The notes: generated by a model not told the origin, from the sequence alone. A DNA stretch of 64,000 bases from Candidatus Saccharimonadales bacterium (GCA_041600715.1 JBFIJM010000001.1:387-64386); one strand, 5' to 3'; positions 23,601 to 48,117 are shown, counted from the first letter of the stretch. Made by a program: numbers and translations.

Positions 23601-23616
23601 GGAAAGGAAAGCAAGG

Positions 23617-26475
23617 ATGAAATACCAAAAGGGAACCCGCAGGAGAGCGATCGAGTACGAGAAAGATCTGGTTAAATACTGGAAAGAAAATAAAATATTC
23701 GAAAAATCAATTGAGCAACGTCCGGCTGACAATGCCTTCGTATTTTATGATGGTCCACCGTTTATATCAGGCGCGCCACATCACGGAACACTGCTCTCCA
23801 GTATCGTAAAAGACGCTGTGCCTCGTTATCAAACAATGAAGGGTAAACGGGTAGAGCGTGTTTGGGGTTGGGACTGTCATGGTTTGCCGGCTGAGCGCTT
23901 CACCGAAAAGAAGCTGGGTATTCATTCTAGACAAGAGGTACTGGAGTATGGAATCGAAAAGTACATCAATGCGACTCGCGAGAATATGGTTCAAACTAGC
24001 GGTTTATGGGAAGAGTATGTTGATCGTATTGGTCGATGGGTGGACTTTAAGGGTGCCTACAAAACCATGGATAAAGACTACATGGAGTCCATTTGGTGGG
24101 CTTTCAAAACTCTTTATGAAAAAGGCAAGATCTACGAGGGTGAGAAAGTGCTCATGTACTGTACGCTCGACGGAACGCCGTTATCAAAAGCCGAAGTTAC
24201 TATGGACGCCGGGGCTTATCAGGACGTTACCGACCCAAGTGTTTATATAAAATTCAAACTTCAAGATGGCAGGTATTTGCTTGCTTGGACGACAACCCCT
24301 TGGACATTACCGGCCAACACTGCCGTTGCAGTTAATCGTGATGTAGATTATGTAGAGGTTCAGATTGATGGTCAGTCATTAATCCTTGCTAAAGACCTGG
24401 TCGAAAAAGTTATGACAGATGAGAAGCACCAACCTCTAGACTATAAAGTTGTTAATGAATTTAGGGGAGAAGATCTAGTGGGGCAAACATATGAGCCCCT
24501 TTTTGTGGATAGGGGTGAGAACGCTCACAAAGTTTGGCATGCTGACTACGTTGAGATCGAAGCCGGTACTGGTATTGTGCACTTAGCGCCAATTTACGGC
24601 GAAGAAGACTTTGAGCTTGCAAAACATGAAGGCTTCCCAGCGGTGCATGTTCTAGACCAGAATGGATTTTATACTGAGGGTGAATGGGAGGGTCAAAATG
24701 TTTGGGAGGTTAACAAACCGATAGCTAAAGAGCTGAAAGAGCGGGGTATTGTTTGGAAAATTGAGTATTACAGGCATAGTTACCCTCACTGCCATAGGTG
24801 CGGTACGAAGCTTATGTATCGAGCACACCCAAGTTGGTTTATGGACATCGATAGCCAGCGTGAAAAAATGCTAGAAGGTAACGAATCCATAAATTGGTTC
24901 CCTAAACACTTAAAATACGGCCGATTTGCAAAGACAATTGAACAAGCTCCAGATTGGAATATTTCTCGTGATCGGTTTTGGGCAACGGCAATGCCAGTAT
25001 GGAAAACAGAGTCAGGCAAGACGAGAGTTGTTGGAAGCTACGCCGAATTAAAAGAACTTTCTGGAGTTGAGCTAGAAGACTATCATCGCCCATGGGTAGA
25101 CGATGTAACCTTCGAGATCGACGGGGAGCTGTATACTCGCATAGATAAAGTTATGGACAGTTGGTTTGAGGCTGGATCTATGCCTTTCGCGCAACTCCAT
25201 TATCCGTTCGAAAATAAAGAAAAGTTTGAGGCAAATTTCCCTGGCGATTTCATTGTTGAGTACATCGCTCAAACAAGAGCGTGGTTCTACTATATGCATG
25301 CTGTCAATATTGCTTTGTTTGACACGTTCTCTTTTAAGAACGTAATTACTACAGGTACACTTGCCGGGAATGACGGTCGTAAGATGAGTAAAAGTCTTAA
25401 TAATTTTACTGATCCAAATGAACTAATGGACAAGTACTCGGCCGATGCTGAGAGGTTTTTGCTACTCTCTTGCCCAGTCTTAAATGGTGAGGACTATTCA
25501 TTGCAAGACAAGGAAGTTGGTGACGTTGCTCGTAAACTCTCCATGATATGGAACATGTACGACTTCTTCACGATGTATGCCGAAGTAGATGGCTGGGAGT
25601 TTACTGGTGATTTATCAGATCCATCTGAGAAGCTTACAAACCTTTTGGATATATGGATAGTTAGCAGGGTTCATCAACTGACAGGTCACATTGAAAAATA
25701 CATGGACGTGTATGATATACCGAATGCCCTAGAGCCAGTTTTGCCGTTCCTGGACGATGCGAGTAACTGGTACGTTAGAAGAAGCCGTCGGCGATTTTGG
25801 AAGTCAGAAGATGATGGTGACAAGAATGATGCATATAAGACTCTCCACTACGTATTAGTGAGACTTTCGCTTGTACTAGCCCCATTTACGCCATTCTTAG
25901 CAGAGGAGCTTTACAGGAAGCTTACAAACGGCGAGTCAGTACACTTAAATAACTGGCCAGAAATAGGCGCGATAGACGATCAACTGGTAGACCGAATGAG
26001 CGCAGTGCGTAATGTTGTGACAACTGGTCTTGCATGGAGAGCAAAACAAAACCTTAAAGTGAGACAGCCTCTTAGTTCGGTTTTTGTTCAACCGGAAGTT
26101 TTTGATCTTGTTAGTAGTTTTGAAGAGATAGTTTTAGAAGAATTAAACGTTAAGAGACTCGAGCAAGACTCTTCTTTGCCCGATGATCAAGTTGTTTTGG
26201 ACGCTGTGATTACAAAAGAGCTTAAAGCTGAGGGTTATATGCGTGAGATTGTGCGACATATTCAAAATGCCCGAAAAGAGGCTGGGCTGGAAGTAGATGA
26301 CAGAATAATAGTCTCGCTCGAATCGAACCACCCTGAACTTGCCGAGGCAATCATAACACACCTATCTGTTATCCACTCAGAAACGCTTGGTACCGCCGGG
26401 AAAGTTGTAAATGGTCATAGCGTAGTGGCTGTTGTAGACGGACAGGAACTTAAGATTGGTCTTGAGAAGGCTTAG
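23617..26475 (+). CDS. ileS: Isoleucyl-tRNA synthetase, type 2 (eukaryote-like)
   Basis: PPFISGAPHHGTLL (HIGH region of type-2 style), KMSKS, and the CP1 editing region. The ATG at 23617 follows GGAAAGGAAAGCAAGG. The track GTG at 23515 runs through the leader RNA. Confidence 0.93.
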   Translation: MKYQKGTRRRAIEYEKDLVKYWKENKIFEKSIEQRPADNAFVFYDGPPFISGAPHHGTLLSSIVKDAVPRYQTMKGKRVERVWGWDCHGLPAERFTEKKLGIHSRQEVLEYGIEKYINATRENMVQTSGLWEEYVDRIGRWVDFKGAYKTMDKDYMESIWWAFKTLYEKGKIYEGEKVLMYCTLDGTPLSKAEVTMDAGAYQDVTDPSVYIKFKLQDGRYLLAWTTTPWTLPANTAVAVNRDVDYVEVQIDGQSLILAKDLVEKVMTDEKHQPLDYKVVNEFRGEDLVGQTYEPLFVDRGENAHKVWHADYVEIEAGTGIVHLAPIYGEEDFELAKHEGFPAVHVLDQNGFYTEGEWEGQNVWEVNKPIAKELKERGIVWKIEYYRHSYPHCHRCGTKLMYRAHPSWFMDIDSQREKMLEGNESINWFPKHLKYGRFAKTIEQAPDWNISRDRFWATAMPVWKTESGKTRVVGSYAELKELSGVELEDYHRPWVDDVTFEIDGELYTRIDKVMDSWFEAGSMPFAQLHYPFENKEKFEANFPGDFIVEYIAQTRAWFYYMHAVNIALFDTFSFKNVITTGTLAGNDGRKMSKSLNNFTDPNELMDKYSADAERFLLLSCPVLNGEDYSLQDKEVGDVARKLSMIWNMYDFFTMYAEVDGWEFTGDLSDPSEKLTNLLDIWIVSRVHQLTGHIEKYMDVYDIPNALEPVLPFLDDASNWYVRRSRRRFWKSEDDGDKNDAYKTLHYVLVRLSLVLAPFTPFLAEELYRKLTNGESVHLNNWPEIGAIDDQLVDRMSAVRNVVTTGLAWRAKQNLKVRQPLSSVFVQPEVFDLVSSFEEIVLEELNVKRLEQDSSLPDDQVVLDAVITKELKAEGYMREIVRHIQNARKEAGLEVDDRIIVSLESNHPELAEAIITHLSVIHSETLGTAGKVVNGHSVVAVVDGQELKIGLEKA

Positions 26476-26499
26476 CAGTCTGTAGGGTTTACAGACTGC
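26475..26499 (+). terminator. Hairpin immediately after ileS
   Basis: GCAGTCTGTA-gggtt-TACAGACTGC, a perfect 10-bp stem with no clear U-tract. Confidence 0.45.
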
Positions 26500-26575
26500 T
26501 CCTAATCTGTTAATATCAACTAAGTCTATATAAAAATCTAGTATGTCATAATATGGCAACAACGTAAGGAATATA

Positions 26576-26884
26576 ATGAAAAAAGCAGTTATCGCCACCG
26601 GCGGAAAGCAGTATCTTGTCTCAGAAGGTGAAACTATCAAGGTTGAGCTCATTAAAGATGCAAAGTCTAAAATTAGTTTTGACGCACTTCTGGTTATCGA
26701 CGGTGAAAAAGCTACTGTTGGAACCCCGTTAGTTAAAGATATTAAAGTGAATACCACTGTTATTGATGAAAACTCACAACAAGACAAGGTTACGTCTATT
26801 CGCTACAAGGCGAAGAAGCGTGTTCGAACTGTGCGAGGCCACAGACAGCGGTTAATGACACTCAAAGTCGATACTATAAAGTAA
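26576..26884 (+). CDS. rplU: 50S ribosomal protein L21
   Basis: MKKAVIATGGKQYLVSEGETIKVE... and ..KKRVRTVRGHRQ, typical of L21. Confidence 0.93.
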   Translation: MKKAVIATGGKQYLVSEGETIKVELIKDAKSKISFDALLVIDGEKATVGTPLVKDIKVNTTVIDENSQQDKVTSIRYKAKKRVRTVRGHRQRLMTLKVDTIK

Positions 26885-26908
26885 GTATTTCTAATCAGTG
26901 CGAATACT

Positions 26909-26934
26909 ACCACCCACAATGGGTGGTTTTATTT
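26909..26934 (+). terminator. Rho-independent terminator of rplU
   Basis: ACCACCCA-caa-TGGGTGGT followed by TTTTATTT. Confidence 0.85.
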
Positions 26935-27035
26935 AATCAAGTTAACCCACCCTAAATAGCTAGTACTATACGGTTAGATAACACTTTATTTATGGTGTGC
27001 TTGTTATGGGCACATGGTGTACAATAACCTGTATC

Positions 27036-27875
27036 ATGGAGATCATAAGCAAGTTCAGGTGCCGTTTTGTTCGAATTAGTTTACTGTTGGCAATGGCTAC
27101 TTTTGTTGTGTTCCCTGCTGTAAATGAAGCCGCCACCCTGTCTACCAATTTTTCCGCAGGCGGAGAACTTGTTCAGGGTAATATAGTTAGTCTGGATAAA
27201 GATGGGCGTACGGTTATTAGGGCTAATCGCGATAATATCGCGAATCTACACGGTGTTGTTGTTAATTCAAGTGATGTGTCATTCTCGCAGAACAATGATA
27301 ATGGAGTCTCTGTCGCTAGTACGGGTGTTATTGAGACACTTGTTAGTGACGTTAATGGTGAAATTAACAGCGGTGACCCGATAACAGTGAATCTCATAGA
27401 AGGTATAGGTGAAAAAGCCTTAGGAGTAGGTAAGGTTATTGGTGTAGCACAAGGTTCATTTGATGGTACGAATGGCACAAGCTATACCTACACACAAGAC
27501 GGAGAAAGCAAAACAATAAAAATAGGCACAATTCCGGTCAAAGTTGAGGTAAGTAACTACGGCGGAAAACAGGGAAGTGCAAGTGCTCAGGATTCAAACC
27601 TTAATCGAAGTAAGATTTTACAAGTAGCCGATGGCCTTGCTGGAAAGCAGGTTAAGGCCATAGCTTTGATAATTGGTTTTCTGTTCGTTCTAATCGGCGG
27701 GTTTGTCGCTACATTCCTTATAACTTCATCAGGTTATGCGTCTATGATTTCTGTTGGGCGTAATCCTCTATCTGAAAAAAAGGTATTAAAGGCACTCGCT
27801 CGAGTCCTGCTGATTGCGATAGGAGTGTTCTTAACTGGGCTCTCCTTAGCTTACGTCACAATAAAACTTGTATAA
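27036..27875 (+). CDS. Secreted or membrane protein (signal peptide, beta-rich ectodomain, C-terminal TM pair), hypothetical
   Basis: The ATG at 27036 lies 10 nt after TACAAT (27020-27025). Signal-like RISLLLAMATFVVFPAVNEA. C-terminal AIALIIGFLFVLIGGFVATFLI and VLLIAIGVFLTGLSLAYV. Confidence 0.6.
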   Translation: MEIISKFRCRFVRISLLLAMATFVVFPAVNEAATLSTNFSAGGELVQGNIVSLDKDGRTVIRANRDNIANLHGVVVNSSDVSFSQNNDNGVSVASTGVIETLVSDVNGEINSGDPITVNLIEGIGEKALGVGKVIGVAQGSFDGTNGTSYTYTQDGESKTIKIGTIPVKVEVSNYGGKQGSASAQDSNLNRSKILQVADGLAGKQVKAIALIIGFLFVLIGGFVATFLITSSGYASMISVGRNPLSEKKVLKALARVLLIAIGVFLTGLSLAYVTIKLV

Positions 27876-27968
27876 AACTATTTACAAGTTCTAGGGTTGT
27901 GATTATAGTTATGGTTAGGTGATAAAAAATAAAAATACACCAAAAATAAAAACAAAGAAATTGTCCAG

Positions 27969-30900
27969 ATGGACGAACACCAAAAACAAACACCAATGAC
28001 AGATATTACCCCAGGCGTAAGGCGGGAGGGGTTTGCTGTAATTGATAGGAAGATAAGCGTCAAGAAAGCTCCAGTGAGACTATCTGTTGATGAAAGAGGT
28101 AGTGTACCAGCCTCTGGTGAGATAGATGCAACTTCAGAAGATTTATCGTTAGGCTCCAGCTCTACAGCGACAGTTGTAGTGCCAAACCCTGTAGCCTCAA
28201 ACGTACCTACACCTCAGGCGATGTACGACGGGCATAATTTTGCAGGCAAGGGATCTAAGAAAAGAATTATTTTAACCATTAGTGCGTGGATGGGTGTGTT
28301 TGTACTCATCTCAGCAATTATTTTTGCCGTTGTTTCATCTAGAAGTAATGACGAAAATGCAGAAAACAAAGTTCAACCAATAACTTCAATACCTAAAGAA
28401 GATCTGCTTAGTGCATCACAAAAAGACTTTGGAACACGTAGCGAAGTAACTATAAATGGTCCTCTCCAGGTAAAGAATAAATTTACAATCAGTCCGTCCG
28501 AAAAGCCATTGAATCCACAAGCAGGTCAGATATATTTTGATGGTAAAACAAAACAATTTGTATTTTATGATGGAGAAGGTTACCAAACTCTCATAACTAA
28601 TCAGCTGTCTGATCAGTTCGGTTCATTGAGTCGGGCAGGACCGGGGACGGGGTTGTCACTTAGTGGCACTCAACTTAATAATAGCGGAGTTTTAAGCATT
28701 CAAGGACAATCGGGTAACCTGACAATAACAGGTGGGCCCGGTTTAGTCGTTAACGGCCTACAACTAGCCAATACCGGCGTGCTGTCTGTTCAAGGAACGG
28801 CCGGTAATGTTGTATTTAGCGGTGGAGCAGGTATTGCAGTAAACGGAACACAGATTAGCAATACAGGCGTCTTGTCAGTCGTCGGTACCGCTAACCAGGT
28901 TAGTGTTAGCACGGCAGGTGGAGTAGTGACCGTTTCACTGCCGCAGAACATCTCGACTAATTCATCGCCACTATTCAATGGGCTCAACTTAACCAATGCT
29001 TTATCGGTAGCAAACGGTGGCACAGGATCAAGTGCTATCAACTTTGTTGCAAACGGTTCAGTATATTACGACGGAACACGACTTGTTTCTACTTCTGCAC
29101 CAGCTAGTGCTGGCCTTTGTCTGATTAGCACCGCTGGCGCCCCAGCGTTTGGCACATGTCCTGGCTCCAGTGCGAGTATAGGTGGTTCGGGAACGCCTGG
29201 TGCTATCCCCTACTTTGACTCTGCCAACACAATCGCTGATTCAATAATGGTACAATCCGGATCGACAGTAACAGTTGCCGGAACCTTAGATGCTACATTT
29301 CTAGTGGGAGATGGCTCCAGTGTCACTAATGTTGATGCAACAGCTTTGAGTGGTCAGGGTTCTGCATATTATAGAAACGCATCCAATATAAATAGCGGTA
29401 TACTCGCCACTGCTTACGGCGGCACAGGCTTGGCAACGACCCCTGCTAACGGACAATTATTAATTGGTAACGGATCTGGCTATAGCCTTGGTACAATCGG
29501 TAATGGTGGCGGATTAACTGTAACTAACGGAGTCGGTACTATCAGTGTTGCGGTAAATTATGGTTCAACCGCCAACACCTCGGCAGAAGGTGATAAACAG
29601 ATAACTGTAACTGCTGGAACTAACTTAACTGGTGGCGGTGTTGTGACAATTGGTGCTGGCGGAACACTGACACTGAATGTTGCGAGTAGTCCAACCTTCT
29701 CGGGTAATTTAAGTGTTCAGGGTGGGTCCGCTACACTTGGCACTGTGTCACAAGCAGGTTCATTAGTGCTAAATGACGGTGCAGGCAATATTGGGACTCT
29801 CCAGGTGGCTTCGCTTGGGCAAGGAACTATTTATACCTTGCCCGATCCAGGTGTAGCCACAGCGACCATTTGTCTAACGACCAACAACTGTGTTGGTCCT
29901 AATGGTGGTGGCGTTACTTCAACTGGAACAGCTAATAAACTAGTAATATTTAGCGGTGGCGCATATAGCCTAGCTGATTCAATCGTTACTCAGTCTTCCG
30001 GCCTTATTACAGTAGACGGTAATCTTTCTGCGACTGCCCTGCAGGGCAACGGAGCAGGATTAACTGACCTTGATGCCGGAAACATAACCACTGGTATATT
30101 ATCAATCGCACGAGGCGGTACTGGTATAAGTCTAACTCCGAACAATGGACAGCTTCTGATAGGTAATGGTACTGGTTATAGTCTAGCTACAATAACCAAT
30201 GCTGATGGCACGGTAGAAATAGTTACTGGCCCAGGTAGTATACAGATCTCGGTTCCAAGAGCTGACCAGTGTGCGACTTGTGCAGACTATACACTTAGCA
30301 ACTTAGCAGATGTAATAGCTATAAATAAATCTCTGCTACCTGCATCTGCAGGCAGTATCAGTCTCGGTGGCGCAGGATTGCCATATCAATATCTATACCT
30401 CTCAGGGGATGAAGTAGCCAATCCAGGGAGTAATTACTTTACTATTACCGGCGATGCTTCTGCTCAGCGAACAATTACCTTGCCGGATGCATCCGGTATA
30501 GTTTGTCTCGATAACGGTAACTGTGCAGGTGCGGGCGGCGGCATAGTCGGTAGTTCTGCAGGTACCACAGGGTATCTCCCAGTCTATACGGGTAGCTACA
30601 CTATAGCTGACAGTATTGTCAGTCAATCATTGGGGGTTCTGTCTGTCGGTGGAAATTTGAACGTAAGTGGTAACGTCTCAATAACTAATGGCTTGACAGT
30701 AACAAACAATATTTCTGCTGCATCATTTAATAACCTTACCCTAACCGCTCTAGCAGATGGCTTCAGCTTATTGGGTGGAACAACCTCTCGAACGCTAACT
30801 GTGCAAGGCAGTAACATTACACTTAATCAAAGCCTTCAGACAACAGACACCCCAAATTTCTCGGGCCTCACTCTTTCTAACTCCCTAGGTGTAGCCTATG

Positions 30901-33900
30901 GGGGTACTGGTATTCTCGGTGGGCCAACAGCCAACGGTCAACTGCTGATAGGATCTAGTACTGGTAACTATACACGCGCTACTTTGACAGCAGGTAGCGG
31001 AATTGTTATTACGAATTCAGCAGGCGGTATAACAGTTGCTGCGCCAACCGCGGGTACTTGTACTTCTGGTTGTGCCGACCAGTCATTGTCTAATCTTGCA
31101 GCAATAAACATCAACACAAGTTTGCTTCCTAACTCAGGCAATACAGTTAGTCTGGGTTCTCTTACTCGCCCATTCCAGAGCATTCGTCTTAATAGTACTG
31201 CTGGCGCTCAAGGATTTAATATTACAGGTACGAATGCCACCGGCACGGAGGTTACTATAGCCTTGCCAGTATTGAATGGTACCGTTGCTTTGGTGCAAAC
31301 CGCAGGTTCTAGCACTACTCAAAACGGGGATCTGAATATCGGTGGAAATATAATCGGCAATAGGTTGATTAGTGGTCTAGTCGGTACAGATGACGGTACT
31401 TCGTCTTCCAATGTAATGCTTAGAAGTGGCAATGCAAGCTCCGGGAATTCCGGCAATGTATCTATTGACTCAGGAAGCGCTAGTGGTACTGCTGGCACAA
31501 TATCCATAGCAACTGTTAATGCGAGCGGATTGACTCTTGGTCGAGCTGGAGTGCAAGTTTCTATTCCTGGCGGACTGAACACTCAAGGTAGCGATATTGT
31601 TAGCCAAAACGGTAACCTTAACCTAGGAACTGGGAGCATCACATCTGGTAATATCAATGGACAGACTATTAGTAGTAGTGCAAACTTCACTGGTACAGTT
31701 CTAATACAAGGAGCTGATGCTCTTACTTTAGGAACTTCTGGAGCCAACACAGGTGCGATCATTTTCCGTAACCTTAACGGTAGCAACAGTGTGAAGCTCA
31801 AGGCATCCGACCTTAACCCAGGATCCGATATAACATTTACTCTACCAAATGCGCTACCAGGAAGCACCGAGTGTGTGACGCTCAGCGCTACTGGCCAATT
31901 TGGATCACAAAACTGTAGCGGTGGCTTAACCGGTAGTGGTAGTGATGGCACATTCTCAATATTTACTTCAGGTGGTACTGCATTGACTGACTCTATACTG
32001 TCTCAGAGTAGCAATACCCTAACTATTCAAGGCTCAAGCAGTAATCTAGTCGTAAGTGGCGGAACATCTGGTGGATTGGGTAATAACTCCATATCACTAG
32101 GAACAGCATCGTCACGTACTGGTGGAATCAACTTTTATAATGAAAGTAACGCCAACGTAGCATCGATAGTAAGTGGAACATCTGCCAATAGTTACACGCT
32201 TATTCTGCCGACCGATCTAGATACAACCGGAAAGTGTCTAAACGTCGGCGCAGGTGGACAAATCGGCTACTTCTCATGTGTATCTAGCGGTGGCGGTGGT
32301 GGAACAGGAGTAACTGGAAGTGGTACGACTGACAGGTTAGTACGATGGACAGACGGCGGTTTATCTGTTGTAGGCGATTCAGTAGTTCGAGACAACGGAA
32401 CACGTGTCGGTATCGGTATTGCACCTGATGCAACTGCAGTGTTTGTAGTTGGAAGTAGTGGCGCATTCAAGGTAACAAATGCAGGCGCCTTGACCTCTGC
32501 CGGAATTACGAATAGTTCTGGAGGTATAGATAACAGCAGTAGTGGTATCACAAATACCGGAGCAATTTCTGGGGCTACAAGTGTCAGTGCCTCAGGCTTA
32601 ATCTCTACTAGCGCAAATAATCAGGCGCTTACACTCAGTGGTGCGCCGACTAATAGCGCAACGCAATCACTTCTACAGATTGGTAGTGCGATTGTGGGCG
32701 GTAATACATCGGCAAACGGTGGAACATACATAGGACTAAACGCGCCAAATAGTGGTGCTGGCTCTGTTGCAGATTTAATAAATCTTCAGAAGAACGGGGT
32801 CAGTCTCTTTAGGGTTGCAACAACCGGCGCCGTCACTGCAGGGACTTACAATAGTTTGTCATTACAAGCAAATGCCACAGGCTTTCAGGTTGCTGGCGGT
32901 ACGGCATCAAGACAGTTGACTGTAACAGCGAATGCTACGATTGATCAAAACTTGGCTGTAGGTAGTAACGTAAGTTTTGGTACGCTGACTCTAAGTACGG
33001 CATTAAGCCCAGCTAACGGTGGTACCGGAATCGCAGGTGGACCTACAGCTGATGGTCAACTACTCATTGGTTCTGCCGGAGGCACATATACACGGTCTAC
33101 CCTTACAGCTGGAAGCGGGATCAATATCTCTAATGCATCGGGCTCGATAACTATCAGTTCACCAAGTGCTGGATCTTGTTCTACATGTGCTGATAGACAG
33201 CTAAGCAATCTGACTGGAACCACAGCTATACCAGTAGATCTCTTGCCATCATCTGCAGGCACGATTAACATTGGCTCTGACACTGCTCCATTCAATAGTC
33301 TGTATGTAGGCACCGACGGTAACGCCTTCAGGATAACTGGCACAGCGACTTCAGATCAGACAGTGACTTTGTTTGATGCAGGCGGGCCAAGTGAAATATG
33401 TGTCAAATACAACGGCGGTGCCAACAGCAACTGTTCTGGTACCGGTGGTGGTATTACAGGTAGTGGAGCTGGCACATCGGGAACAATACCGGTGTATACT
33501 GGAAGTTATTCAATTGCTGATAGTATCTTGAGCCAGTCGGCCGGTGTAGTATCTGTAGCAGGTGGCTTAAGTGCTACTGGCGGTGTCAACTTCTCAAGTA
33601 CTCTTGCCGTAACCAATGCAGTTACAGGTGGAACTTTCAACGGGCTAACACTCACCTCAGCATCAGACGGATTCACCATAAATGGCGGTACTACTCCACG
33701 AACTCTGACAGTTCAAGGGGCAAATGTATCGATAAACCAGAGCTTACTGACATCTAGCAACGTCACATTTGCAGGAGTTACTGCATCTGGCAACCTGAGC
33801 ATTACAGGAACCAGCACACTCACTGGAGCAGTTACCGCATCGTCAATCGCTCCTCCAGCTTCAACAGCGTTTATTCTGGGTGCGAACGGTGCTGGACAGA

Positions 33901-35549
33901 CTACTAATCTTCAGGGTAGTACTATTACGTTCACTAACGGGGCTCGTACCTATGGATTCAATAGCGTTGCTTCTGGATCGCACACAATTTGTGATTCAAG
34001 TGGTAACTGCGCTAGCGCGGGCGGTGGTGTCACTACTGTCGGCGGTACTTTAAATAAATTAGCCAAGTTTAGTGGTTCGCAGACAATCGTAGACTCAGTA
34101 TTCAGTGATGATGGTACAAACGGTACAATCTCTGGGAGCTTGTCTATACAAGGAACAACCCTTTCAGGTAGCGGTGCACTGACGGTGGCTAGTACTGGTG
34201 GCGCCAACAACCTTACTCTTAACTCCGGTTCTGGCACTATTATCTTCGGTGCCAATACTTTCCAACGCACTGCAACCGGGGGTGTAACCTTCGACCTAGT
34301 TGATGTTAACCCGACTACGTTCACCGTAACAAATAGTCATGGTACTGGAGTTGCTAATCTGAGCGTGGAAGGCTCTGGCACTTTCGGTGCAGGAGTAACA
34401 TCAACTGGTGGAGTGGTAAATCTCAACGCCAGCTCAAACAACGCAACCAACATAAACACCGGTACTAGTACAGGAGCTGTCGCAATAGGTAATAGCGCTA
34501 CTTCAAGCCTGACCATCGAATCTGGCACGGGTACTACAAGTCTATTTAATGGAGCAACTGCTCACACTATAAACTTCGCTACTGGAGCGGCTTCTCAGAG
34601 TATAACAATAGGATCCATTAATACTACAAGTCTTACCAAGATCCAGGGTGGCGCAACAGGAAGTGTCAGCATCGGAGCGGTCCTGGCAGAGACTAACAGC
34701 TCAACAGTCAATATTGCAAACACGAGTAATGCAACAGGCACTCAGACGGTCAGGATTGGCTCAACCGCGAATTCTGCCAACTCCACTATTTTGCAGTCTG
34801 GATCAACCAACGGCGTTATCGTAAGGTCCGACGGCACCACTGGATTTAGAGTTCAAAATGCCAGCGGAAGTACGACTATATTTACCGTAGACAGCACCAA
34901 CTCCATAGTTACCATAGGTAGTGCCACAGGTTCACTTACAGGCAGAGACCTTGTAGTAGCAGATCTTGATGTTACAACTTCACTTCGTGTGGGTAATGGC
35001 ACAAACGGGGTGAGCTTCAATGATGCGACATCTGGTAAGTTCCGCCTCAGTGGTACAGCTCGTAACTCCAAGAAACTCTTGTTAACCGCAGAATATGCAG
35101 GCTTAGTTCTTGACCCAGACGGCAGTAACAACATAGGGTCTGCTACCAGTGCATTCGATGCAACCCAAAGGGAAAGCTACTATAACTGGAGTACAACTCA
35201 AGCGACAAATCAGGACTATGACTTTGTTGTTCAGGTGCCACTACCGAGCGATTTCGACGGACTTGATGGCAGTAATCCGATAACCATCGACCGCTGGACA
35301 AGCAATACTACTAACGGAACTATTACAGCCACACTTTTAGATACAGCTGGCTCAGCCGTAATTAACTGGAACTCATGTTCGCTTACCCCAGGTAGTTCAA
35401 GTACTTGGACAACTACAACTGGATGTTCGATATCAACAGGAACCTTCACTGCTGATGGAGTAATTACTCTACGGATAAAACTTCAGGCACCACAGAACGG
35501 CAACACAAGAATCGGTAATATAACAATAAATTACTTAAGTAAGTTCTAA
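27969..35549 (+). CDS. Giant (2526 aa) membrane-anchored surface protein built from concatenated tail-fibre-like modules
   Basis: Uninterrupted 7.6-kb ORF with an N-terminal TM (ILTISAWMGVFVLISAIIFAVV). Seven CysX5-13Cys plus Gly-rich junctions, each followed by a G..(N)KL..F(S/T)G....(A/V)DS.(V/L).Q motif. Four GGTG..NGQLLIG units. Three C..CAD..LSNL....LLP..G...(L/I)G units. A beta-sandwich-like C-terminus. Confidence 0.85.
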   Translation: MDEHQKQTPMTDITPGVRREGFAVIDRKISVKKAPVRLSVDERGSVPASGEIDATSEDLSLGSSSTATVVVPNPVASNVPTPQAMYDGHNFAGKGSKKRIILTISAWMGVFVLISAIIFAVVSSRSNDENAENKVQPITSIPKEDLLSASQKDFGTRSEVTINGPLQVKNKFTISPSEKPLNPQAGQIYFDGKTKQFVFYDGEGYQTLITNQLSDQFGSLSRAGPGTGLSLSGTQLNNSGVLSIQGQSGNLTITGGPGLVVNGLQLANTGVLSVQGTAGNVVFSGGAGIAVNGTQISNTGVLSVVGTANQVSVSTAGGVVTVSLPQNISTNSSPLFNGLNLTNALSVANGGTGSSAINFVANGSVYYDGTRLVSTSAPASAGLCLISTAGAPAFGTCPGSSASIGGSGTPGAIPYFDSANTIADSIMVQSGSTVTVAGTLDATFLVGDGSSVTNVDATALSGQGSAYYRNASNINSGILATAYGGTGLATTPANGQLLIGNGSGYSLGTIGNGGGLTVTNGVGTISVAVNYGSTANTSAEGDKQITVTAGTNLTGGGVVTIGAGGTLTLNVASSPTFSGNLSVQGGSATLGTVSQAGSLVLNDGAGNIGTLQVASLGQGTIYTLPDPGVATATICLTTNNCVGPNGGGVTSTGTANKLVIFSGGAYSLADSIVTQSSGLITVDGNLSATALQGNGAGLTDLDAGNITTGILSIARGGTGISLTPNNGQLLIGNGTGYSLATITNADGTVEIVTGPGSIQISVPRADQCATCADYTLSNLADVIAINKSLLPASAGSISLGGAGLPYQYLYLSGDEVANPGSNYFTITGDASAQRTITLPDASGIVCLDNGNCAGAGGGIVGSSAGTTGYLPVYTGSYTIADSIVSQSLGVLSVGGNLNVSGNVSITNGLTVTNNISAASFNNLTLTALADGFSLLGGTTSRTLTVQGSNITLNQSLQTTDTPNFSGLTLSNSLGVAYGGTGILGGPTANGQLLIGSSTGNYTRATLTAGSGIVITNSAGGITVAAPTAGTCTSGCADQSLSNLAAININTSLLPNSGNTVSLGSLTRPFQSIRLNSTAGAQGFNITGTNATGTEVTIALPVLNGTVALVQTAGSSTTQNGDLNIGGNIIGNRLISGLVGTDDGTSSSNVMLRSGNASSGNSGNVSIDSGSASGTAGTISIATVNASGLTLGRAGVQVSIPGGLNTQGSDIVSQNGNLNLGTGSITSGNINGQTISSSANFTGTVLIQGADALTLGTSGANTGAIIFRNLNGSNSVKLKASDLNPGSDITFTLPNALPGSTECVTLSATGQFGSQNCSGGLTGSGSDGTFSIFTSGGTALTDSILSQSSNTLTIQGSSSNLVVSGGTSGGLGNNSISLGTASSRTGGINFYNESNANVASIVSGTSANSYTLILPTDLDTTGKCLNVGAGGQIGYFSCVSSGGGGGTGVTGSGTTDRLVRWTDGGLSVVGDSVVRDNGTRVGIGIAPDATAVFVVGSSGAFKVTNAGALTSAGITNSSGGIDNSSSGITNTGAISGATSVSASGLISTSANNQALTLSGAPTNSATQSLLQIGSAIVGGNTSANGGTYIGLNAPNSGAGSVADLINLQKNGVSLFRVATTGAVTAGTYNSLSLQANATGFQVAGGTASRQLTVTANATIDQNLAVGSNVSFGTLTLSTALSPANGGTGIAGGPTADGQLLIGSAGGTYTRSTLTAGSGINISNASGSITISSPSAGSCSTCADRQLSNLTGTTAIPVDLLPSSAGTINIGSDTAPFNSLYVGTDGNAFRITGTATSDQTVTLFDAGGPSEICVKYNGGANSNCSGTGGGITGSGAGTSGTIPVYTGSYSIADSILSQSAGVVSVAGGLSATGGVNFSSTLAVTNAVTGGTFNGLTLTSASDGFTINGGTTPRTLTVQGANVSINQSLLTSSNVTFAGVTASGNLSITGTSTLTGAVTASSIAPPASTAFILGANGAGQTTNLQGSTITFTNGARTYGFNSVASGSHTICDSSGNCASAGGGVTTVGGTLNKLAKFSGSQTIVDSVFSDDGTNGTISGSLSIQGTTLSGSGALTVASTGGANNLTLNSGSGTIIFGANTFQRTATGGVTFDLVDVNPTTFTVTNSHGTGVANLSVEGSGTFGAGVTSTGGVVNLNASSNNATNINTGTSTGAVAIGNSATSSLTIESGTGTTSLFNGATAHTINFATGAASQSITIGSINTTSLTKIQGGATGSVSIGAVLAETNSSTVNIANTSNATGTQTVRIGSTANSANSTILQSGSTNGVIVRSDGTTGFRVQNASGSTTIFTVDSTNSIVTIGSATGSLTGRDLVVADLDVTTSLRVGNGTNGVSFNDATSGKFRLSGTARNSKKLLLTAEYAGLVLDPDGSNNIGSATSAFDATQRESYYNWSTTQATNQDYDFVVQVPLPSDFDGLDGSNPITIDRWTSNTTNGTITATLLDTAGSAVINWNSCSLTPGSSSTWTTTTGCSISTGTFTADGVITLRIKLQAPQNGNTRIGNITINYLSKF

Positions 35550-35551
35550 TC

Positions 35552-38500
35552 ATGAGCGAGCGTGAATACGAACTGATTAAACGAACTATACTCATCGAGA
35601 AACGAACGTTCTTGAATAATTCTAATAACGTCCAGAAATTTGTAAATAATAATAGAGTTAACAAAGTGTTTAGTCATATTTTGAGTCGTCATCCTCGACC
35701 ATTTATGTATTTATCACTTTGCTTGTTGCTACTATTTCAATCTGTTGGCATGGCTCTACTGCCTTCGCTAGCTAACCCTGACAAACTCTACAACCTCTCT
35801 GATGAGACCCAACAATTGACAGGCAAGACCAACGATACTTTATCCAAGAGACTAACCTACGACCCAGAAAAGAAGATCTACCAGTACAACAAAGAAGCCG
35901 CTCCAGCCGGAAACCCAGGTAGTCCAGAAGAAGCAATGGCTTCTGCTCAGCAAAGCCAAAAGGTAGGCGGAGGAGCTGACAACTACACTGTAGACTTATC
36001 CGTTGACCCAACCAAAGGCGTCACTGTCCGCGATGCTACCGATACTTCTGGCTCACTAGCCATCAGTATGGTTCCTCAGTTTGGAGCCCGAGAAGGTAAA
36101 CAAAAAGACGGACGTATAATCTATCCACTAAAAGGTAAGAAAGGTCACCTAGTCTACAGTGTTAAAGCCAATGGTCTCAAAGAAGATATTGTCCTAAGCG
36201 AAGAACAAGGCAATGACCTAGACTTTAGCTACAAACTAAACCTCCCAGAAAGCCTAGAAGCTAAACTACTAGATAACGGCAGTATTGGTATATACTCTGC
36301 CGACACCACACTGTTTGGTAACATCTCCTTTGGCTCAGACCAAGACAGAGATAGGGTAGAGAAAGCCAGAAAGAACGCCGAGAAGAACAACCTAGTCTTC
36401 AATATACCCGCACCAGTAGTAGTCCAAGCCAACAAAGATAACCAAACAAACAGCAAAGATAACCAACAAGACACCAACGAAACCAAGAAAGACAACACAG
36501 TAAAGTCTAAGTTTGAACTAAACGGAGACACCCTAACCGTCAAAACAACCGGACTAAAGAACGCTAACTACCCACTAAGCATAGACCCATCCGTAGCCGT
36601 AACCAGTGCCAGTGACTTCGCTAAAGGCAACCTAGAAGACGGCATAGAGATAGACACCACCAACAACCAGATAAAGAGAGCAGGACTGACTGGGGGGAGT
36701 GTGGGGTCGTGGACGACGGATGGCGGAACAAGCTTTAGTGGTACAAGAACATACGCCGGAACGGTGGCATATAACGGCTATCTTTATCTAATTGGCGGAT
36801 CAGGATCTGGAGGTTATCGGACAGATACTCAATACGCCCCCATAGATCCAAGTGGAGAGATAGGAGCTTGGACTACCAGCGCGTACTCTTTCACAACTGG
36901 TAGAGATAGATTTATGGCTGTGACATACAATGGCTACATTTACATCATGGGTGGCTTTGCTTCCAGTACTTACTACAGGGATGTGCAATACTCAAAAATA
37001 CAGTCAGATGGCTCAATAGGAGCTTGGTCGTCTCTTGCTAGTTTCAATACTCCAGCGCGGTTTGGACACGCAGGCTTTGCATACAACGGCTATATCTATA
37101 TTACTGGCGGGTGTACAGCTGATAACATCATATCTTGTACTGCCTGGACTACGAATGTCCAGTATGCTTCCATCAATGCGGACGGAACACTTGGAGCTTG
37201 GACAAATAACCCCAACAGTTTTCTCAGCGCTAGGTATGGTCACTCAGCCACCGTCTACAACGGTTATATGTACATCATGGGGGGAAATATACAGGGAGGA
37301 AACGCAAACATCATTCAGTACGCATCTATAAATGCTGACGGTAGCGTAGGTACGTTCGCTGTTAGTGCTAACAACTACACGACTAACAGGCAGGAGCACA
37401 CCACTATAGCACTAGCTGGATATCTATACGTCATGGGGGGGAACAACGGTGGTTCATTCCTTAATACTGTTCAGTATGCACCGATTAATGCGGACGGAAG
37501 TATCGGAGTCTGGTCGACATCCACAAATTTCACTACAGCACGCTTCGGTCATGCAAGCATCGCATATAATAACAAGTTGTATATCATTGGAGGTTGTAAT
37601 GCTGGAGCATGCAGTAGCTGGCTTGGAGACGTACAGTATACGTCGATTGATCCGGCGGGCGTTACCAGCACCTACTCTACAACTACATCTTTATCGTCCA
37701 CTAGGTTCGGACACGCATCGGTAACTTACAACGGATACTTATACGTCGTAGGGGGGAATGTAGGCGGTTCATTCAGCGGTAATATCTCCTATGCTCCAAT
37801 AAATTCTAACGGAACTGTTGGCGCTTGGGCTACCGCAGGAACATTTACCACAGCCAGATATCTTTTGACTGCCGTAGCCTATAACGGCCACATGTATATT
37901 ATGGGTGGAACAGACGGAACATACAGGAACATCACACAGTATGCACCCATAAACTCGAACGGCACTCTAGGTACCATAAATAGCACCACGACAACGTTTG
38001 CGGGTGTAAGATCTACTTTTGCATCGGTAGCATACAATGGATATATGTACGTTACTGGTGGCTATAATGGCACAACAAGCATAAGCAGTATCCAATATGC
38101 GCCTATAGATAGCAACGGTAATATAACAACAACTTGGACTGCAGGCACAAACATGTCTGCAAACATCAACGGTCACGCAGTCGTAGCATTTAACAACAAG
38201 CTATATCGCCTAGGAGGAAACAACAACGCGACCGTAGAATACCTTACTATTAATAGCGACGGATCTCTTAGCGCCAGTTGGACTGCTACGACAAGTTTTA
38301 CAACCGGTCGCACACAGTTCTCGGCTACGTTCGACAAGGGTTATATGTATATCTTTGGCGGAGGTAACAACAGTGGCACTTACTATAATGATGTTCAATA
38401 TGCCCTGGTAAATGCTGACGGTACTATCAGCGCTGGTGCATGGAAAACAACACAGAGCATTACCACGGCCCGAGATTTGATGGGGGCTGTGATCCACGGC

Positions 38501-40033
38501 GGTACAGCCTATATTACAGGAGGACGTCATGCCACTACTGATACTGCATGCCATGGTAGTTCAAGCCAATTTTGCTCTGACGTACAGTATGCTCGAGTAA
38601 ATAACGGAGGTACTGGCAGAATTGGAACCACGACAGAAGTTAGTAATTTTTCTAATGAGAGAGGAAGATCCGCGACCGTGGCCTATAACGGTTATCTGTA
38701 TGTGATAGGGGGGTTTCATACCCAAGCACCAGCAGGGGTATTGTCCGATGCACAGTATGCCCCAATCTTATCCGATGGGTCACTCGGAAGCTGGCAATCT
38801 GCGGGCACCGGTGGAACATTGGCGAGTAGCGTCCAGTGGGCTAAAGCACAAGCAAGAAATGGCTATATATATCTTTCGGGAGGCGTATCAAATTCTGGAG
38901 TGTTCCAGGGGGTTAACTACGCTCTAGTTTGCACAGGCGAGAATAACGGAGTACAGGGATGTAACTCAACGCCCGGCACTCTTGGTACATGGACTTCTGC
39001 CGAGGCCGGGGGCTCAATACCTGTTAAATCGTCTGGGAGTGCCATTGCTTTGGTTGACGACTATATATATGTGATGGGGGGCTGTACCAGTTATTCTGGC
39101 ACTAACTGCATATCATTATCTCAATCAGTATATTTCGCTCGTTTCAACTCTAATGGAACCTTGGGGGCTTGGCAATCTACAAATGCATATGGTAACTCAC
39201 GACATTATTACTCTACCTTCGCGTCAAATGGATATATATATCTAAGTGGCGGATGTAATATAGATTGTTCAACTAAGTACGCCGATGTTCAATATTCTAA
39301 AATCCAATCTGACGGGAGTCTAGCGGTTTGGCAAACAACCACAAGATTACCTGAAGCGTCAATATACGCTTCAGGCTCTTCGGCAAACGGGTATGCCTAC
39401 ATTGTGGGAGGTCAGAATTCTTCTGTTAGGTTAGCTTCGGTTTATTTTGCAACAATAAATTCTAACGGAACCATTGGCGACTGGTTTAAAGTGAGCACAA
39501 CTTTTGCCGGTGGTACAGGACTGGACCAAAGTGATGTAGCAAATTATAACGGTTATTTATATGCAACTGGAGGCATATATGACACAGGTAGCACTAATGA
39601 TGTCCATAAAATAGGTCTAAACTCAATTGACCGCAAAGGTTCGTATTCGTACTTGGTTGATCTGGCAGGAGACGGCGTATTAACCAAAATATTAGCACAA
39701 GGCTTAGCCACAAAAGGCTCGAAGATACATTTTGGAGGCAGGAACTCACTGGTTTCTAGTACTTCGTTTGGTGCGACTTCTTTTAACCTAGGTTTTTTAC
39801 CAGGCTCTTTAGTTACTATTCCCGCTACAGAGAGTCGATATAGACAGCTTAAATTTGTTTTAGATGATACTCAAAGCTCAGCATTCCCAGACATTATGAG
39901 CCCCCAGTCTACTCTAGATGATTTTGAGGCGTACTTCAGGGCAGCAACTGATGGTTCAGGCTCTAAACGCCTGAGAGGTGGTAAGACCTTCACCACAGAA
40001 CAGCAACGCTCCCTAGACGCTCAACCACAATAA
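35552..40033 (+). CDS. Large (1493 aa) membrane-anchored protein with about 18 Kelch-like beta-propeller blades
   Basis: The ATG lies 2 nt after the stop of the giant gene. TM FMYLSLCLLLLFQSVGMALL. The unit YNGY.Y..GG....(~15 aa)..QYA.I..DG..G.W......T.R.GH occurs 18 times. Confidence 0.85.
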   Translation: MSEREYELIKRTILIEKRTFLNNSNNVQKFVNNNRVNKVFSHILSRHPRPFMYLSLCLLLLFQSVGMALLPSLANPDKLYNLSDETQQLTGKTNDTLSKRLTYDPEKKIYQYNKEAAPAGNPGSPEEAMASAQQSQKVGGGADNYTVDLSVDPTKGVTVRDATDTSGSLAISMVPQFGAREGKQKDGRIIYPLKGKKGHLVYSVKANGLKEDIVLSEEQGNDLDFSYKLNLPESLEAKLLDNGSIGIYSADTTLFGNISFGSDQDRDRVEKARKNAEKNNLVFNIPAPVVVQANKDNQTNSKDNQQDTNETKKDNTVKSKFELNGDTLTVKTTGLKNANYPLSIDPSVAVTSASDFAKGNLEDGIEIDTTNNQIKRAGLTGGSVGSWTTDGGTSFSGTRTYAGTVAYNGYLYLIGGSGSGGYRTDTQYAPIDPSGEIGAWTTSAYSFTTGRDRFMAVTYNGYIYIMGGFASSTYYRDVQYSKIQSDGSIGAWSSLASFNTPARFGHAGFAYNGYIYITGGCTADNIISCTAWTTNVQYASINADGTLGAWTNNPNSFLSARYGHSATVYNGYMYIMGGNIQGGNANIIQYASINADGSVGTFAVSANNYTTNRQEHTTIALAGYLYVMGGNNGGSFLNTVQYAPINADGSIGVWSTSTNFTTARFGHASIAYNNKLYIIGGCNAGACSSWLGDVQYTSIDPAGVTSTYSTTTSLSSTRFGHASVTYNGYLYVVGGNVGGSFSGNISYAPINSNGTVGAWATAGTFTTARYLLTAVAYNGHMYIMGGTDGTYRNITQYAPINSNGTLGTINSTTTTFAGVRSTFASVAYNGYMYVTGGYNGTTSISSIQYAPIDSNGNITTTWTAGTNMSANINGHAVVAFNNKLYRLGGNNNATVEYLTINSDGSLSASWTATTSFTTGRTQFSATFDKGYMYIFGGGNNSGTYYNDVQYALVNADGTISAGAWKTTQSITTARDLMGAVIHGGTAYITGGRHATTDTACHGSSSQFCSDVQYARVNNGGTGRIGTTTEVSNFSNERGRSATVAYNGYLYVIGGFHTQAPAGVLSDAQYAPILSDGSLGSWQSAGTGGTLASSVQWAKAQARNGYIYLSGGVSNSGVFQGVNYALVCTGENNGVQGCNSTPGTLGTWTSAEAGGSIPVKSSGSAIALVDDYIYVMGGCTSYSGTNCISLSQSVYFARFNSNGTLGAWQSTNAYGNSRHYYSTFASNGYIYLSGGCNIDCSTKYADVQYSKIQSDGSLAVWQTTTRLPEASIYASGSSANGYAYIVGGQNSSVRLASVYFATINSNGTIGDWFKVSTTFAGGTGLDQSDVANYNGYLYATGGIYDTGSTNDVHKIGLNSIDRKGSYSYLVDLAGDGVLTKILAQGLATKGSKIHFGGRNSLVSSTSFGATSFNLGFLPGSLVTIPATESRYRQLKFVLDDTQSSAFPDIMSPQSTLDDFEAYFRAATDGSGSKRLRGGKTFTTEQQRSLDAQPQ
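36698..39622 (+). repeat. Array of about 18 Kelch-type repeats (period about 50-60 aa) within the 1493-aa protein
   Basis: I counted 18 occurrences of [YKHT].[YA][ILVRA].[GS]GG blade cores, from YLYLIGGS to YLYATGGI. Confidence 0.8.
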
Positions 40034-40117
40034 ACATCACCTTTGCAGGATTCGTTCTCGCAAAGACAAGGTGTGTGAAAATGTGTTATGCTAATGGTAT
40101 ATTTTCACGAGGGTGTT

Positions 40118-40888
40118 ATGAAACAAATAGTCGCAGTATTAAATCAGAAAGGTGGAGTAGGTAAGACAACTACTACACTAAACCTTGGTGCATATTTAGC
40201 AAAGATGGGCAATACGGTGTTGGTCGTAGATGCTGATCCTCAAGGTAATGCAACGAGCGGTTTGGGAGTCGACAAAACCAGGCTAGATGTAACATTGTGC
40301 GACGTGCTAGTTTCCGGTATCGACATGAACTCTGCTGTCATTCAGACTTCAACAAAAAATGTAAAATTATTACCAACCGATGCTCGTCTTGCTAGTACAG
40401 AGTTAGATATTGCAGATAACACTGACAGAGAGTTGAAATTAAAAAAAGCTTTGGTTGGACAAGATTACGATTATGTACTAATAGACTGTCCACCGTCACT
40501 GAGTCTTTTGACGATTAATGCATTAACAGCATCAGATCTAGTTCTTATTCCTGTGCAATCAGAGTATTATGCCTTAGAGGGGCTCAGTCAGCTACTGCAA
40601 GTTATGCAACAAGTACAACGTAGCCATAATCCTGATCTGGAGCTTTTAGGCGTGGTGATGACCATGTACGATAAGCGTACCGCACTAAGCCAGCAAGTGT
40701 ATGATGAGGTAGGTAAACATTTTGGCGATAAACTATTGAACACAATAATCCCCCGAAACATCAGGCTAGCAGAAGCACCAAGTCACGGCACGCCGATAAG
40801 TGAATACGATAAATGGAGTAAGGGCGCACGTGCGTATAAAAATCTTGCTAAGGAAATACATAGCCGAGTACAAGGAGGGCATAAGTAA
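40118..40888 (+). CDS. parA: Chromosome partitioning ATPase ParA/Soj
   Basis: Deviant Walker A NQKGGVGKTTT, and DCPPSL. The ATG at 40118 follows GAGGG; the track start at 40088 adds 10 non-conserved residues. Confidence 0.92.
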   Translation: MKQIVAVLNQKGGVGKTTTTLNLGAYLAKMGNTVLVVDADPQGNATSGLGVDKTRLDVTLCDVLVSGIDMNSAVIQTSTKNVKLLPTDARLASTELDIADNTDRELKLKKALVGQDYDYVLIDCPPSLSLLTINALTASDLVLIPVQSEYYALEGLSQLLQVMQQVQRSHNPDLELLGVVMTMYDKRTALSQQVYDEVGKHFGDKLLNTIIPRNIRLAEAPSHGTPISEYDKWSKGARAYKNLAKEIHSRVQGGHK

Positions 40889-48024: not shown

Positions 48025-48117
48025 GATATCAGTATACCACCTCTGTTATGGAATGTCAGATTAACCATAAAATTGAACTGAAGGCGCTTGCTTAAATAAT
48101 TGTGATAACATGTGAAT

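Follow-up and report, generated by a model that had tools for sequence, protein, structure and literature searches.

A giant fibre-like protein and an 18-blade Kelch partner as a candidate surface attachment module at a variable chromosomal site in a Saccharibacterium

We investigated three consecutive genes in a 64,000-nucleotide (64-kb) stretch of DNA from a Candidatus Saccharimonadales bacterium (GCA_041600715.1 JBFIJM010000001.1:387-64386), hereafter the window. The genes, here termed g1, g2 and g3, encode in turn a small membrane protein, a giant fibre-like protein and a Kelch protein, and lie between rplU and the parAB genes (Table 1). We read the locus as a chromosomal surface fibre module with a g2-g3 core, most likely serving attachment to a host bacterium or to its envelope glycans, and place the probability of this reading slightly above one half (about 0.55). 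The initial annotation of the locus had proposed a system for cell-cell attachment or host recognition; predicted membrane anchors, phage-fibre-like parts and membership of an epibiont lineage favour that proposal, while surface exposure, ligand binding and a role in host attachment are properties that we infer for the module. The named homologues and related loci belong to Candidatus Saccharibacteria, Saccharimonadia or Saccharimonadales, and the source organism is, on the strength of these matches, a Candidatus Saccharibacteria (TM7) bacterium. The database copies of g1, g2 and g3 all sit on one 771-kb contig.

The principal evidence for a g2-g3 core is a recurrent pairing of genes. In all five loci with a visible gene upstream of a g3-type Kelch gene, that upstream gene ends in the C-terminal domain (CTD) found in g2, with gaps of 2-83 nt between the two genes. 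The five loci (cited, like database proteins, by L and P numbers) are the window, L007, L089/L090, L091 and L092/L093, four having been found by starting from g3 homologues on long contigs. The CTD-bearing upstream proteins measure 3912 aa in L007, 2009 aa in L089/L090, 2110 aa in L092/L093 and 1593 aa in L091; the gap in L089/L090 is 2 nt, the same as in the window, and the L091 protein is an FG-GAP protein unrelated to g2 outside the CTD. A forward test, starting from the CTD-bearing protein P0181 (L094), recovered about 180 nt downstream an open reading frame (ORF) with a transmembrane (TM) segment and the start of a g3-type N-domain (E 3e-6), which ends at the contig edge. No g3-type gene comes after the giant proteins that lack the CTD (L002_1599, L003_1945, both giants of L088, and L094_3018), and fusions of g2-like and Kelch parts occur, for example in P0185 (4025 aa), P0189, P0232 and P0256. 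Judging from these arrangements, we conclude that the g2-type CTD and the g3-type protein are likely functional partners, and we infer that the two proteins may associate physically. The initial annotation had treated all three genes as one module. This holds for g2 and g3, which form a recurrent cassette, but g1 is less closely linked: its family is normally tied to an F1-like ATPase operon, and only the lineage of the window has it beside giant genes.

The giant protein g2 is predicted to consist of a cytoplasmic N-terminus (aa 1-98), a TM segment (aa 99-127), a conserved anchor-proximal module reaching to about aa 440, a mosaic and repeated middle, and the CTD, the cytoplasmic side being a prediction. 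Internal duplications, such as aa 711-1100 against 1622-1945 (45-60% identity), make the earlier description of g2 as a concatemer a fair one. Conservation is segment-wise: the TM-proximal ~440 aa are common to close relatives and to other giants at the same site, and the middle is shuffled, differing even between close relatives. We detected 148 homologues, mosaic in composition, 1,400-4,400 aa long and mostly from Saccharimonadales, and identified additional domains among them (Beta_helix/NosD, Peptidase_S74, CBM_4_9, LVIVD, YadA_head, Kelch, and an N-terminal MerR/helix-turn-helix (HTH) domain). Of 119 giant homologues, 24 end in the g2-type CTD. No sequence match to g2 was found in Pfam, NCBIfam or PDB, and the CTD profile had no match in Pfam or PDB. 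A MerR/HTH_17 (excisionase-like) DNA-binding domain opens some of the g2-like giants (L007:19613-24365, P0213, P0241 and P0282), which implies that a giant surface protein can have a DNA-binding head in the cytoplasm.

Among phage protein families, g2 matches phrog_31660, a "tail fiber protein" family, in four stretches (E 2.9e-10). It does not lie in a phage or tailocin cluster, having housekeeping neighbours and a syntenic site. Neither does g2 classify as a trimeric autotransporter: it has no YadA_head match, carries its TM anchor at the N-terminus and ends in a soluble, conserved C-terminus. YadA_head matches are present in the g2-like giants of L002 and L003.

A second fibre-like gene, ORF 251-3031, lies at the start of the window. 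The motif NINTGTSTGA occurs in both proteins, at aa 2161 of g2 (nt ~34449) and aa 481 of ORF 251-3031 (nt ~1691), and had been taken to indicate a paralogous family. The motif is indeed common to the two, but the similarity is that of a local 69-aa module only, with g2 aa 2132-2192 aligning to aa 444-511 of ORF 251-3031 at 51% identity over 69 aa (E 8e-8, composition-corrected BLAST). Whole-length paralogy was rejected, as the long alignments shrink under composition correction. A similarity between g2 and g3, seen in uncorrected BLAST, was also spurious and was lost or shrunk with the same correction. ORF 251-3031 has many tail-fibre PHROG matches and a weak H-type lectin match, and no TM segment was found in it by hydropathy. 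Its neighbours are rpsA and infB, and it is not part of a prophage.

The protein g3 belongs to the Kelch-repeat beta-propeller proteins. Its best Kelch match in Pfam has an E-value of 3.6e-54, scores exceed the cut-offs for PF24681 (183.8 bits against 50) and PF01344 (151 bits against 20.1), and 84 Kelch chains in PDB match at E <= 1e-3. The protein comprises a basic N-terminus, a TM segment or uncleaved signal (aa 50-75), an N-domain (aa 76-390), 18 blades (aa ~395-1345) and a C-terminal domain (aa 1350-1493), and its 18 Y..GG blade motifs are enough for three six-bladed propellers. We identified at least 698 homologues, many of about 1,400 aa, with 94-100% query coverage and 31-43% identity. 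In a 71-sequence alignment, conservation extends along the whole length, including an N-domain of ~315 aa and a C-terminal domain of ~145 aa, and g3 has all the parts of a full-length, ~1,400-aa Saccharibacterial Kelch family (TM, N-domain, ~18 blades and C-terminal domain). The C-terminal tail contains KRLRGGKTF (aa ~1471-1479, nt 39962-39988), in which G..RLR.G is kept in at least 70% of the 71 sequences aligned; a likeness to LRLRGG at the C-terminus of ubiquitin may be coincidental.

The AlphaFold2 (AF2) model of the g3 N-domain is beta-rich, with a predicted local distance difference test (pLDDT) score of 76. The domain profile had no PDB match and the model no significant Foldseek neighbour, the best (non-significant, E 0.02-0.1) being beta-sandwiches of glycoside hydrolases and mutarotases. 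These neighbours would fit a glycan-processing or nutrient-acquisition device, in which the Kelch propellers act as lectins or mutarotase-like units that harvest host cell-wall polymers. Several g3 homologues are annotated as N-acetylneuraminic acid mutarotase, a Kelch enzyme, and Beta_helix/NosD and CBM_4_9 domains occur in many g2 homologues, both in keeping with such a device. We nonetheless consider it quite unlikely: neither g2 nor g3 has a catalytic-domain match in Pfam or NCBIfam, the structural matches fall short of significance, and the mutarotase label derives from the Kelch fold alone.

The module had been described as inserted between rplU and parAB. This is misleading, as the same site holds other large surface-protein genes in L091, L088, L002 and L003. 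The gene order in L091 is isoleucyl-tRNA synthetase (IleRS), rplU, a cargo of three genes (a LamG protein of 707 aa, the CTD-bearing FG-GAP protein and a 1607-aa Kelch protein), then parA, parB, signal peptidase, LytR, a 260-aa protein, HtrA, PrmC and RF1; its flanks are those of the window and its cargo is different. Two Kelch-containing giants precede the same parA block in L088, and L002 and L003 have a giant, g1 and a second giant there. On this synteny, the module is one allele of a conserved but variable surface-protein island, not a unique insertion. At two unrelated loci, IS200/IS605-type Y1 transposase genes adjoin giant surface-protein genes (L001:9297-9953 and L092:106-753); such neighbours hint at a route of cargo exchange at these sites.

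According to the attachment reading, g2 would project from the membrane via its N-terminal TM helix, with a middle made of shuffled phage-tail-fibre-like repeat modules. The Kelch protein g3, with its 18 blades as three propellers, would associate with the g2 CTD, and the two would make up the part of the fibre that binds ligands at its distal end. Diversification of interaction specificity, most plausibly in host-cell attachment, would account for the variable g2 middle and for the exchange of cargo at the site. g1 is possibly a membrane-embedded base or coupling element, and its membership of the apparatus is uncertain.

Several observations weigh against this arrangement. The proposed g2-g3 interaction draws on gene neighbourhood in about six independent loci, four of which were reached from Kelch homologues. 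Two loci, L002 and L003, have no Kelch gene after their CTD-bearing giant, where a g1 homologue and then a giant without the CTD stand instead, and the g3-type Kelch gene of L054 is not preceded by a CTD protein. Neither the g2 CTD nor the g3 N-domain has informative neighbours, so that no binding activity can be assigned to them. Both g2 and g3 have an N-terminal hydrophobic segment, and the geometry of a tip complex would be awkward if both stay anchored. Genes of the g1 family mostly stand in an ATPase operon, with a giant gene nearby in only 3 of ~26 long ATPase-linked loci. Finally, the neighbouring LytR-CpsA-Psr, signal peptidase and HtrA genes would fit a general envelope role equally well.

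Such a role would make the proteins structural components of the envelope and not adhesins: they would act as a coat resembling an S-layer, as a spacer or as a layer of protective fibres, for cell integrity or division-site organisation. We think this unlikely but credit it with some weight. The site lies amid parAB, signal peptidase, LytR-CpsA-Psr, HtrA and ftsA/ftsZ, and the g3 architecture is kept across hundreds of genomes (at the 31-43% identity given above) without the hypervariability that receptor-binding proteins often have. The mosaic g2 middle and the changing cargo of the site, on the other hand, are what diversifying pressure typically produces in proteins for interaction or recognition, and the tail-fibre, YadA-head, CBM and beta-helix domains among the homologues are adhesin- or depolymerase-like.

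The small protein g1 combines a beta-rich ectodomain (aa ~33-175) with a membrane hairpin (aa 208-278). Three starts are available, GTG 26997, ATG 27006 (giving the 289-aa database entry P0001) and ATG 27036, of which the N-termini of homologues favour the last. Its AF2 model has a mean pLDDT of 88.6, with hairpin helices at 208-242 and 244-278. Foldseek matched the ectodomain to phage cement, decoration and head-fibre-base proteins in PDB (8hdt_G at E 3.6e-5, 8pkh chains at ~1e-4 and 6qyy_B at 8.5e-3), and to 42 entries in BFVD at E <= 1e-3 (best 3e-8), many of these being N-terminal base domains of long viral fibres. The phage-like parts recognised in the initial annotation would, on this model, extend to g1, the ectodomain of which is predicted to have a capsid-decoration or head-fibre-base fold. 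It is the fold that likens the domain to lambda gpD-like and Pam3 cement proteins and to the base of phi29 gp8.5 (PDB E 3.6e-5 to 1e-3). The g1 domain differs in being tethered to a cell membrane and not to a capsid, and the sequence similarity is marginal, a profile against decoration proteins giving E 0.14 only.

In its close subgroup, g1 adjoins a g2-like giant in all five loci (the window, L002, L003/L005, L006, and P0002 with P0180, both listed on an 8,847-bp contig); a scan of genome contigs with a narrow g1 alignment returned 2 loci. The head-fibre-base fold and this linkage to giants within the lineage would be in keeping with g1 as a possible membrane base of the fibre.

The phage-like folds and matches raise the question of a prophage or tailocin remnant of which only fibre genes survive. 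Such a remnant could account for the tail-fibre PHROG match of g2, the decoration or head-fibre-base fold of g1, and the Peptidase_S74 and tail-fibre PHROG matches of ORF 251-3031. We find it barely credible, and rejected it as a candidate: it is contradicted by the housekeeping neighbours, by the synteny of locus and flanks across distinct Saccharibacteria, by the membrane anchors on all three proteins, and by the large, chromosomal families to which g1 and g3 belong. Pfam searches of the window proteins returned no capsid, portal, terminase, baseplate, lysis or integrase genes in the 64 kb, as the initial annotation had also noted for phage structural, lysis and integration genes. No long direct or inverted DNA repeats flank the module, and a search for long repeats, as might mark a mobile-element boundary or a diversity-generating retroelement, found the diverged Kelch blades only.

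The membrane hairpin of g1 resembles a different protein, subunit c of F-type ATPases (PF00137). Both have two TM helices with the two ends outside and a cytoplasmic loop, which in g1 carries an invariant R-N-P and thus has the R-(Q/N)-P form of c subunits. The hairpin superposes on c subunits with TM-scores of 0.74-0.91 and a root-mean-square deviation of 1.1-1.6 A, and in a search of the whole PDB with a hairpin-only profile, c subunits ranked first and second (E 0.043 and 0.1). Unlike subunit c, g1 has a ~165-aa ectodomain and signal peptide fused at its N-terminus and lacks the conserved helix-2 carboxylate, no conserved D/E being present in helix 2 in either of two family alignments. Helix 1 has no GxGxGxG motif. 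No g1 match to PF00137 (ATP-synt_C) was found at E <= 0.01, one of 26 hairpins matching at E 0.22, and hhalign of the g1 hairpin against approximate c-subunit sequences gave a probability of 14% (P 0.002). Hairpin likeness alone is weak evidence, since pilins of type IV secretion systems also match c subunits structurally.

Gene context provides the decisive addition to this likeness. The g1 family is large, with 1,053 clusters (at 50% identity) at E <= 1e-30, and a metagenome scan for g1 relatives found 434, for which 80 loci were fetched. In ~70 of the 80, that is wherever the available DNA suffices, a g1-like gene comes directly before a set of b-like, delta-like, alpha, gamma, beta and epsilon genes. 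An a- or c-like ORF was not found within 10 kb on either side of these F1-like operons by a crude filter of regular expressions and hydropathy. The subunits score below canonical NCBIfam cut-offs (in L004, for example, alpha 391 against 484, beta 453.9 against 462.85, gamma 82.7 against 194, delta 27.6 against 57.5 and epsilon 40.6 against 67), and all fall below the cut-offs for the alternate (N-type) ATPase too. Against the Mycoplasma F1-like models (MMOB1660/1670 and MSC_0618/0619), alpha scores 327.8 and 274 (cut-offs 600 and 520) and beta 353.9 and 405.6 (cut-offs 850 and 570). We therefore rejected two identities for the operon, a canonical F0F1 ATP synthase, given the sub-cut-off subunits and the lack of a or c genes nearby, and a Mycoplasma F1-like X0 ATPase of type 2 or 3, given the alpha and beta scores. 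A cultured Saccharibacterium has a normal AtpZ-a-c-b-delta-alpha operon; this, with the sub-cut-off scores, implies that the g1-linked cluster is a distinct, divergent F1-like system. The g1-headed operon appears, from sequence comparison, to be an undescribed type of F1-like ATPase in Saccharibacteria.

These operons suggest an alternative in which only g2 and g3 form a unit, and g1 is part of the c-like ring of an F1-like ATPase encoded elsewhere, having been moved beside the fibre genes by a lineage-specific rearrangement. We regard this as a real possibility, although we doubt it. The ~70 loci just described favour it, as do the GRNP loop, invariant in 37 of 37 aligned members including the window g1 and suggesting that the same partner has been kept, the promoter-like site between g1 and g2, and the presence of the surface island without g1 in L091 and L088. 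Opposed to it are the g2-like giants beside g1 in all five subgroup loci, and the Kelch or giant genes that sometimes lie directly upstream of ATPase-linked g1-like genes (L054, L071 and L001). Furthermore, no F1-like ATPase genes were found in the 64-kb window, so that a neighbouring b-like gene is a feature of the distant relatives and not of the window g1. In L054 (L054:4777-10747), an F1-like operon headed by a g1-like gene is preceded, at a distance of 47 nt, by a g3-type Kelch gene (1679 aa); it is the sole locus that joins all three themes.

A bolder reading takes the g1 family as the membrane rotor or anchor of an F1-like ATPase without an a subunit or an ion-binding c. A c-like ring would then bear head-fibre-base-like ectodomains outside the cell, and ATP hydrolysis would be mechanically coupled to structures on the cell surface, for example the giant fibre and the Kelch protein. 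The repeated adjacency of giant or Kelch genes to g1-type genes (in the window, L002, L003 and L054) prompts this reading, which we hold to be very unlikely. If true, it would describe a machine for surface functions or attachment that runs on ATP and parallels the gliding apparatus of Mycoplasma mobile in function, though of independent origin, and would be categorically new.

Table 1. Positions of the genes and sequence features discussed (window coordinates unless a locus is named)
Feature	Position	Strand	Description
g1	27036-27875	+	279 aa; signal-like helix, ectodomain, two-helix membrane hairpin (ORF listing, translation)
GRNP loop codons, g1 aa 241-244	27756-27767	+	Invariant in the aligned members; aligns with GRNP/GRQP of F-ATPase c subunits
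g2	27969-35549	+	2526 aa, giant Gly/Thr/Ser-rich fibre-like protein (ORF listing, translation)
g2 aa 2132-2192, module with NINTGTSTGA	34362-34544	+	Common to ORF 251-3031
g2 CTD, aa 2339-2526	34983-35546	+	~190 aa, recurrent C-terminal domain; ends ...NYLSKF
g3	35552-40033	+	1493-aa Kelch protein (ORF listing, translation)
Promoter-like site in g1-g2 gap	27881-27909	+	TTTACA-17-TATAGT, 10/12 matches; overlaps weak hairpin
IleRS	23515-26475		Left flank of module
rplU	26576-26884	+	PF00829
rplU intrinsic terminator	26909-26934	+	Left boundary; 8-bp stem 26909-26927, 5 GC pairs, then TTTATTT
parA	40088-40888	+	Right boundary (Pfam)
parB	40888-41733	+	Right boundary (Pfam)
ORF 251-3031	251-3031	+	926 aa, second fibre-like gene; Peptidase_S74 intramolecular-chaperone domain, E 2e-29; may start before window
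Seven-gene F1-like operon	L004:10001-15837		Also L001, L008-L087; strictly conserved order; not in window

The layout given in the initial annotation was confirmed, all the features that it lists lying at the coordinates given. ORF listing and translation place three consecutive plus-strand genes between rplU and parAB, with g2 and g3 2 nt apart, and hydropathy predicts membrane segments in all three proteins (in g1 a signal-like N-terminal helix and two C-terminal TMs, in g2 and g3 the segments described above). A strong rplU terminator (-15.8 kcal/mol, z -3.2) lies on the left and parA, by its Pfam match, on the right; the hairpin between g1 and g2 (~27864-27889) is, as described, weak, AT-rich and without a U-tract (-8.3 kcal/mol, z -2.0). 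The promoter-like site in the same gap has the top score in 26400-40300, although the number of such sites is not above shuffled expectation. It separates g1 from g2, and a single three-gene transcript is consequently not established.

The block that begins with parAB continues with signal peptidase (minus strand), LytR-CpsA-Psr, a 265-aa protein, HtrA, PrmC (minus) and RF1 (minus). The 265-aa gene (44093-44890), which follows LytR, has counterparts of 249-260 aa at the same position in L002, L088 and L091. It is among the plus-strand ORFs without a Pfam match, together with 7504-8940 (478 aa), 9053-10414 (453 aa) and 48112-49308 (398 aa). The remaining genes of the window are, by Pfam, housekeeping genes, including rpsA, infB, priA, fmt, map, ftsA, ftsZ, nrdR, a class II ribonucleotide reductase, rpsB, tsf, frr and tRNA synthetases. 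In this reduced Saccharibacterial genome we additionally identified a 315-aa protein (60664-61611, plus strand) that matches Heliorhodopsin (PF18761, E 2.4e-23). The G+C content of the module (0.45-0.48 across 28001-40000) is slightly above that of the flanks (0.40-0.44), and GC skew turns negative across 34-38 kb of the window; Gly/Ala/Thr/Ser-rich coding content probably explains both.

An arrangement comparable to g2-g3 is known from phages, in which a long-tail-fibre gene is followed by a gene for a tip adhesin or assembly protein (gp37/gp38 of T-even phages, and the fibre and Tfa of P2 and Mu). The two share a long fibre gene, modular in build and mosaic in its middle, a partner gene directly after it, and a pairing that tracks the C-terminal domain of the fibre, and g2 matches a tail-fibre PHROG. 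They differ in that the Saccharibacterial pair has no phage context, that both of its proteins have N-terminal membrane segments, and that a Kelch protein of 1,493 aa takes the place of the small adhesin or chaperone.

The F1-like operons invite comparison with the F1-like X0 ATPases of Mycoplasma and the gliding system of M. mobile (Gli123/349/521), which likewise combine a reduced-genome, surface-dwelling bacterium, a divergent F1-like cluster without a proton-channel subunit, and giant surface proteins in the lineage (PMC8406192, PMC11864180). In contrast to those systems, the Saccharibacterial operon keeps gamma, delta-like, epsilon and b-like subunits and lies outside this window.

Cultured Saccharibacteria are obligate epibionts that require pili and adhesins, and adhesins are essential for the epibiotic growth of one of them, Southlakia epibionticum (PMC10633639). 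In Patescibacteria, for example in Absconditicoccaceae, surface proteins of very large size count as candidates for host recognition, and the idea that giant adhesin-like proteins recognise hosts is thus already known for this group (PMC13059738, PMC10633639). The module described here resembles those proteins in its giant size, reduced-genome epibiont lineage, signal or TM anchor, adhesion-type repeats and proposed host contact (PMC13059738, PMC10633639); it differs in domain content, FN3, VCBS, dockerin, integrin or ConA domains being those of the named examples. Our literature searches found no case of tail-fibre-like repeats with a CTD paired with an 18-blade Kelch partner and a g1-type neighbour. 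Searches on Saccharibacteria with Kelch, and on F1-like with Patescibacteria, returned nothing relevant, and neither the rplU/parA island nor the g1 architecture and its link to an F1-like operon was encountered in them.

How ultrasmall Patescibacteria recognise and hold their hosts is largely unknown, and the factors tested are type IV pili and a few adhesins only. The locus offers testable parts in this respect, namely the CTD-Kelch cassette, the rplU-parAB site of cargo exchange and the g1-type family of more than 1,000 clusters. The g1 family and its F1-like operon additionally bear on why non-respiring bacteria keep ATPase genes, and on the re-use of rotary ATPases.

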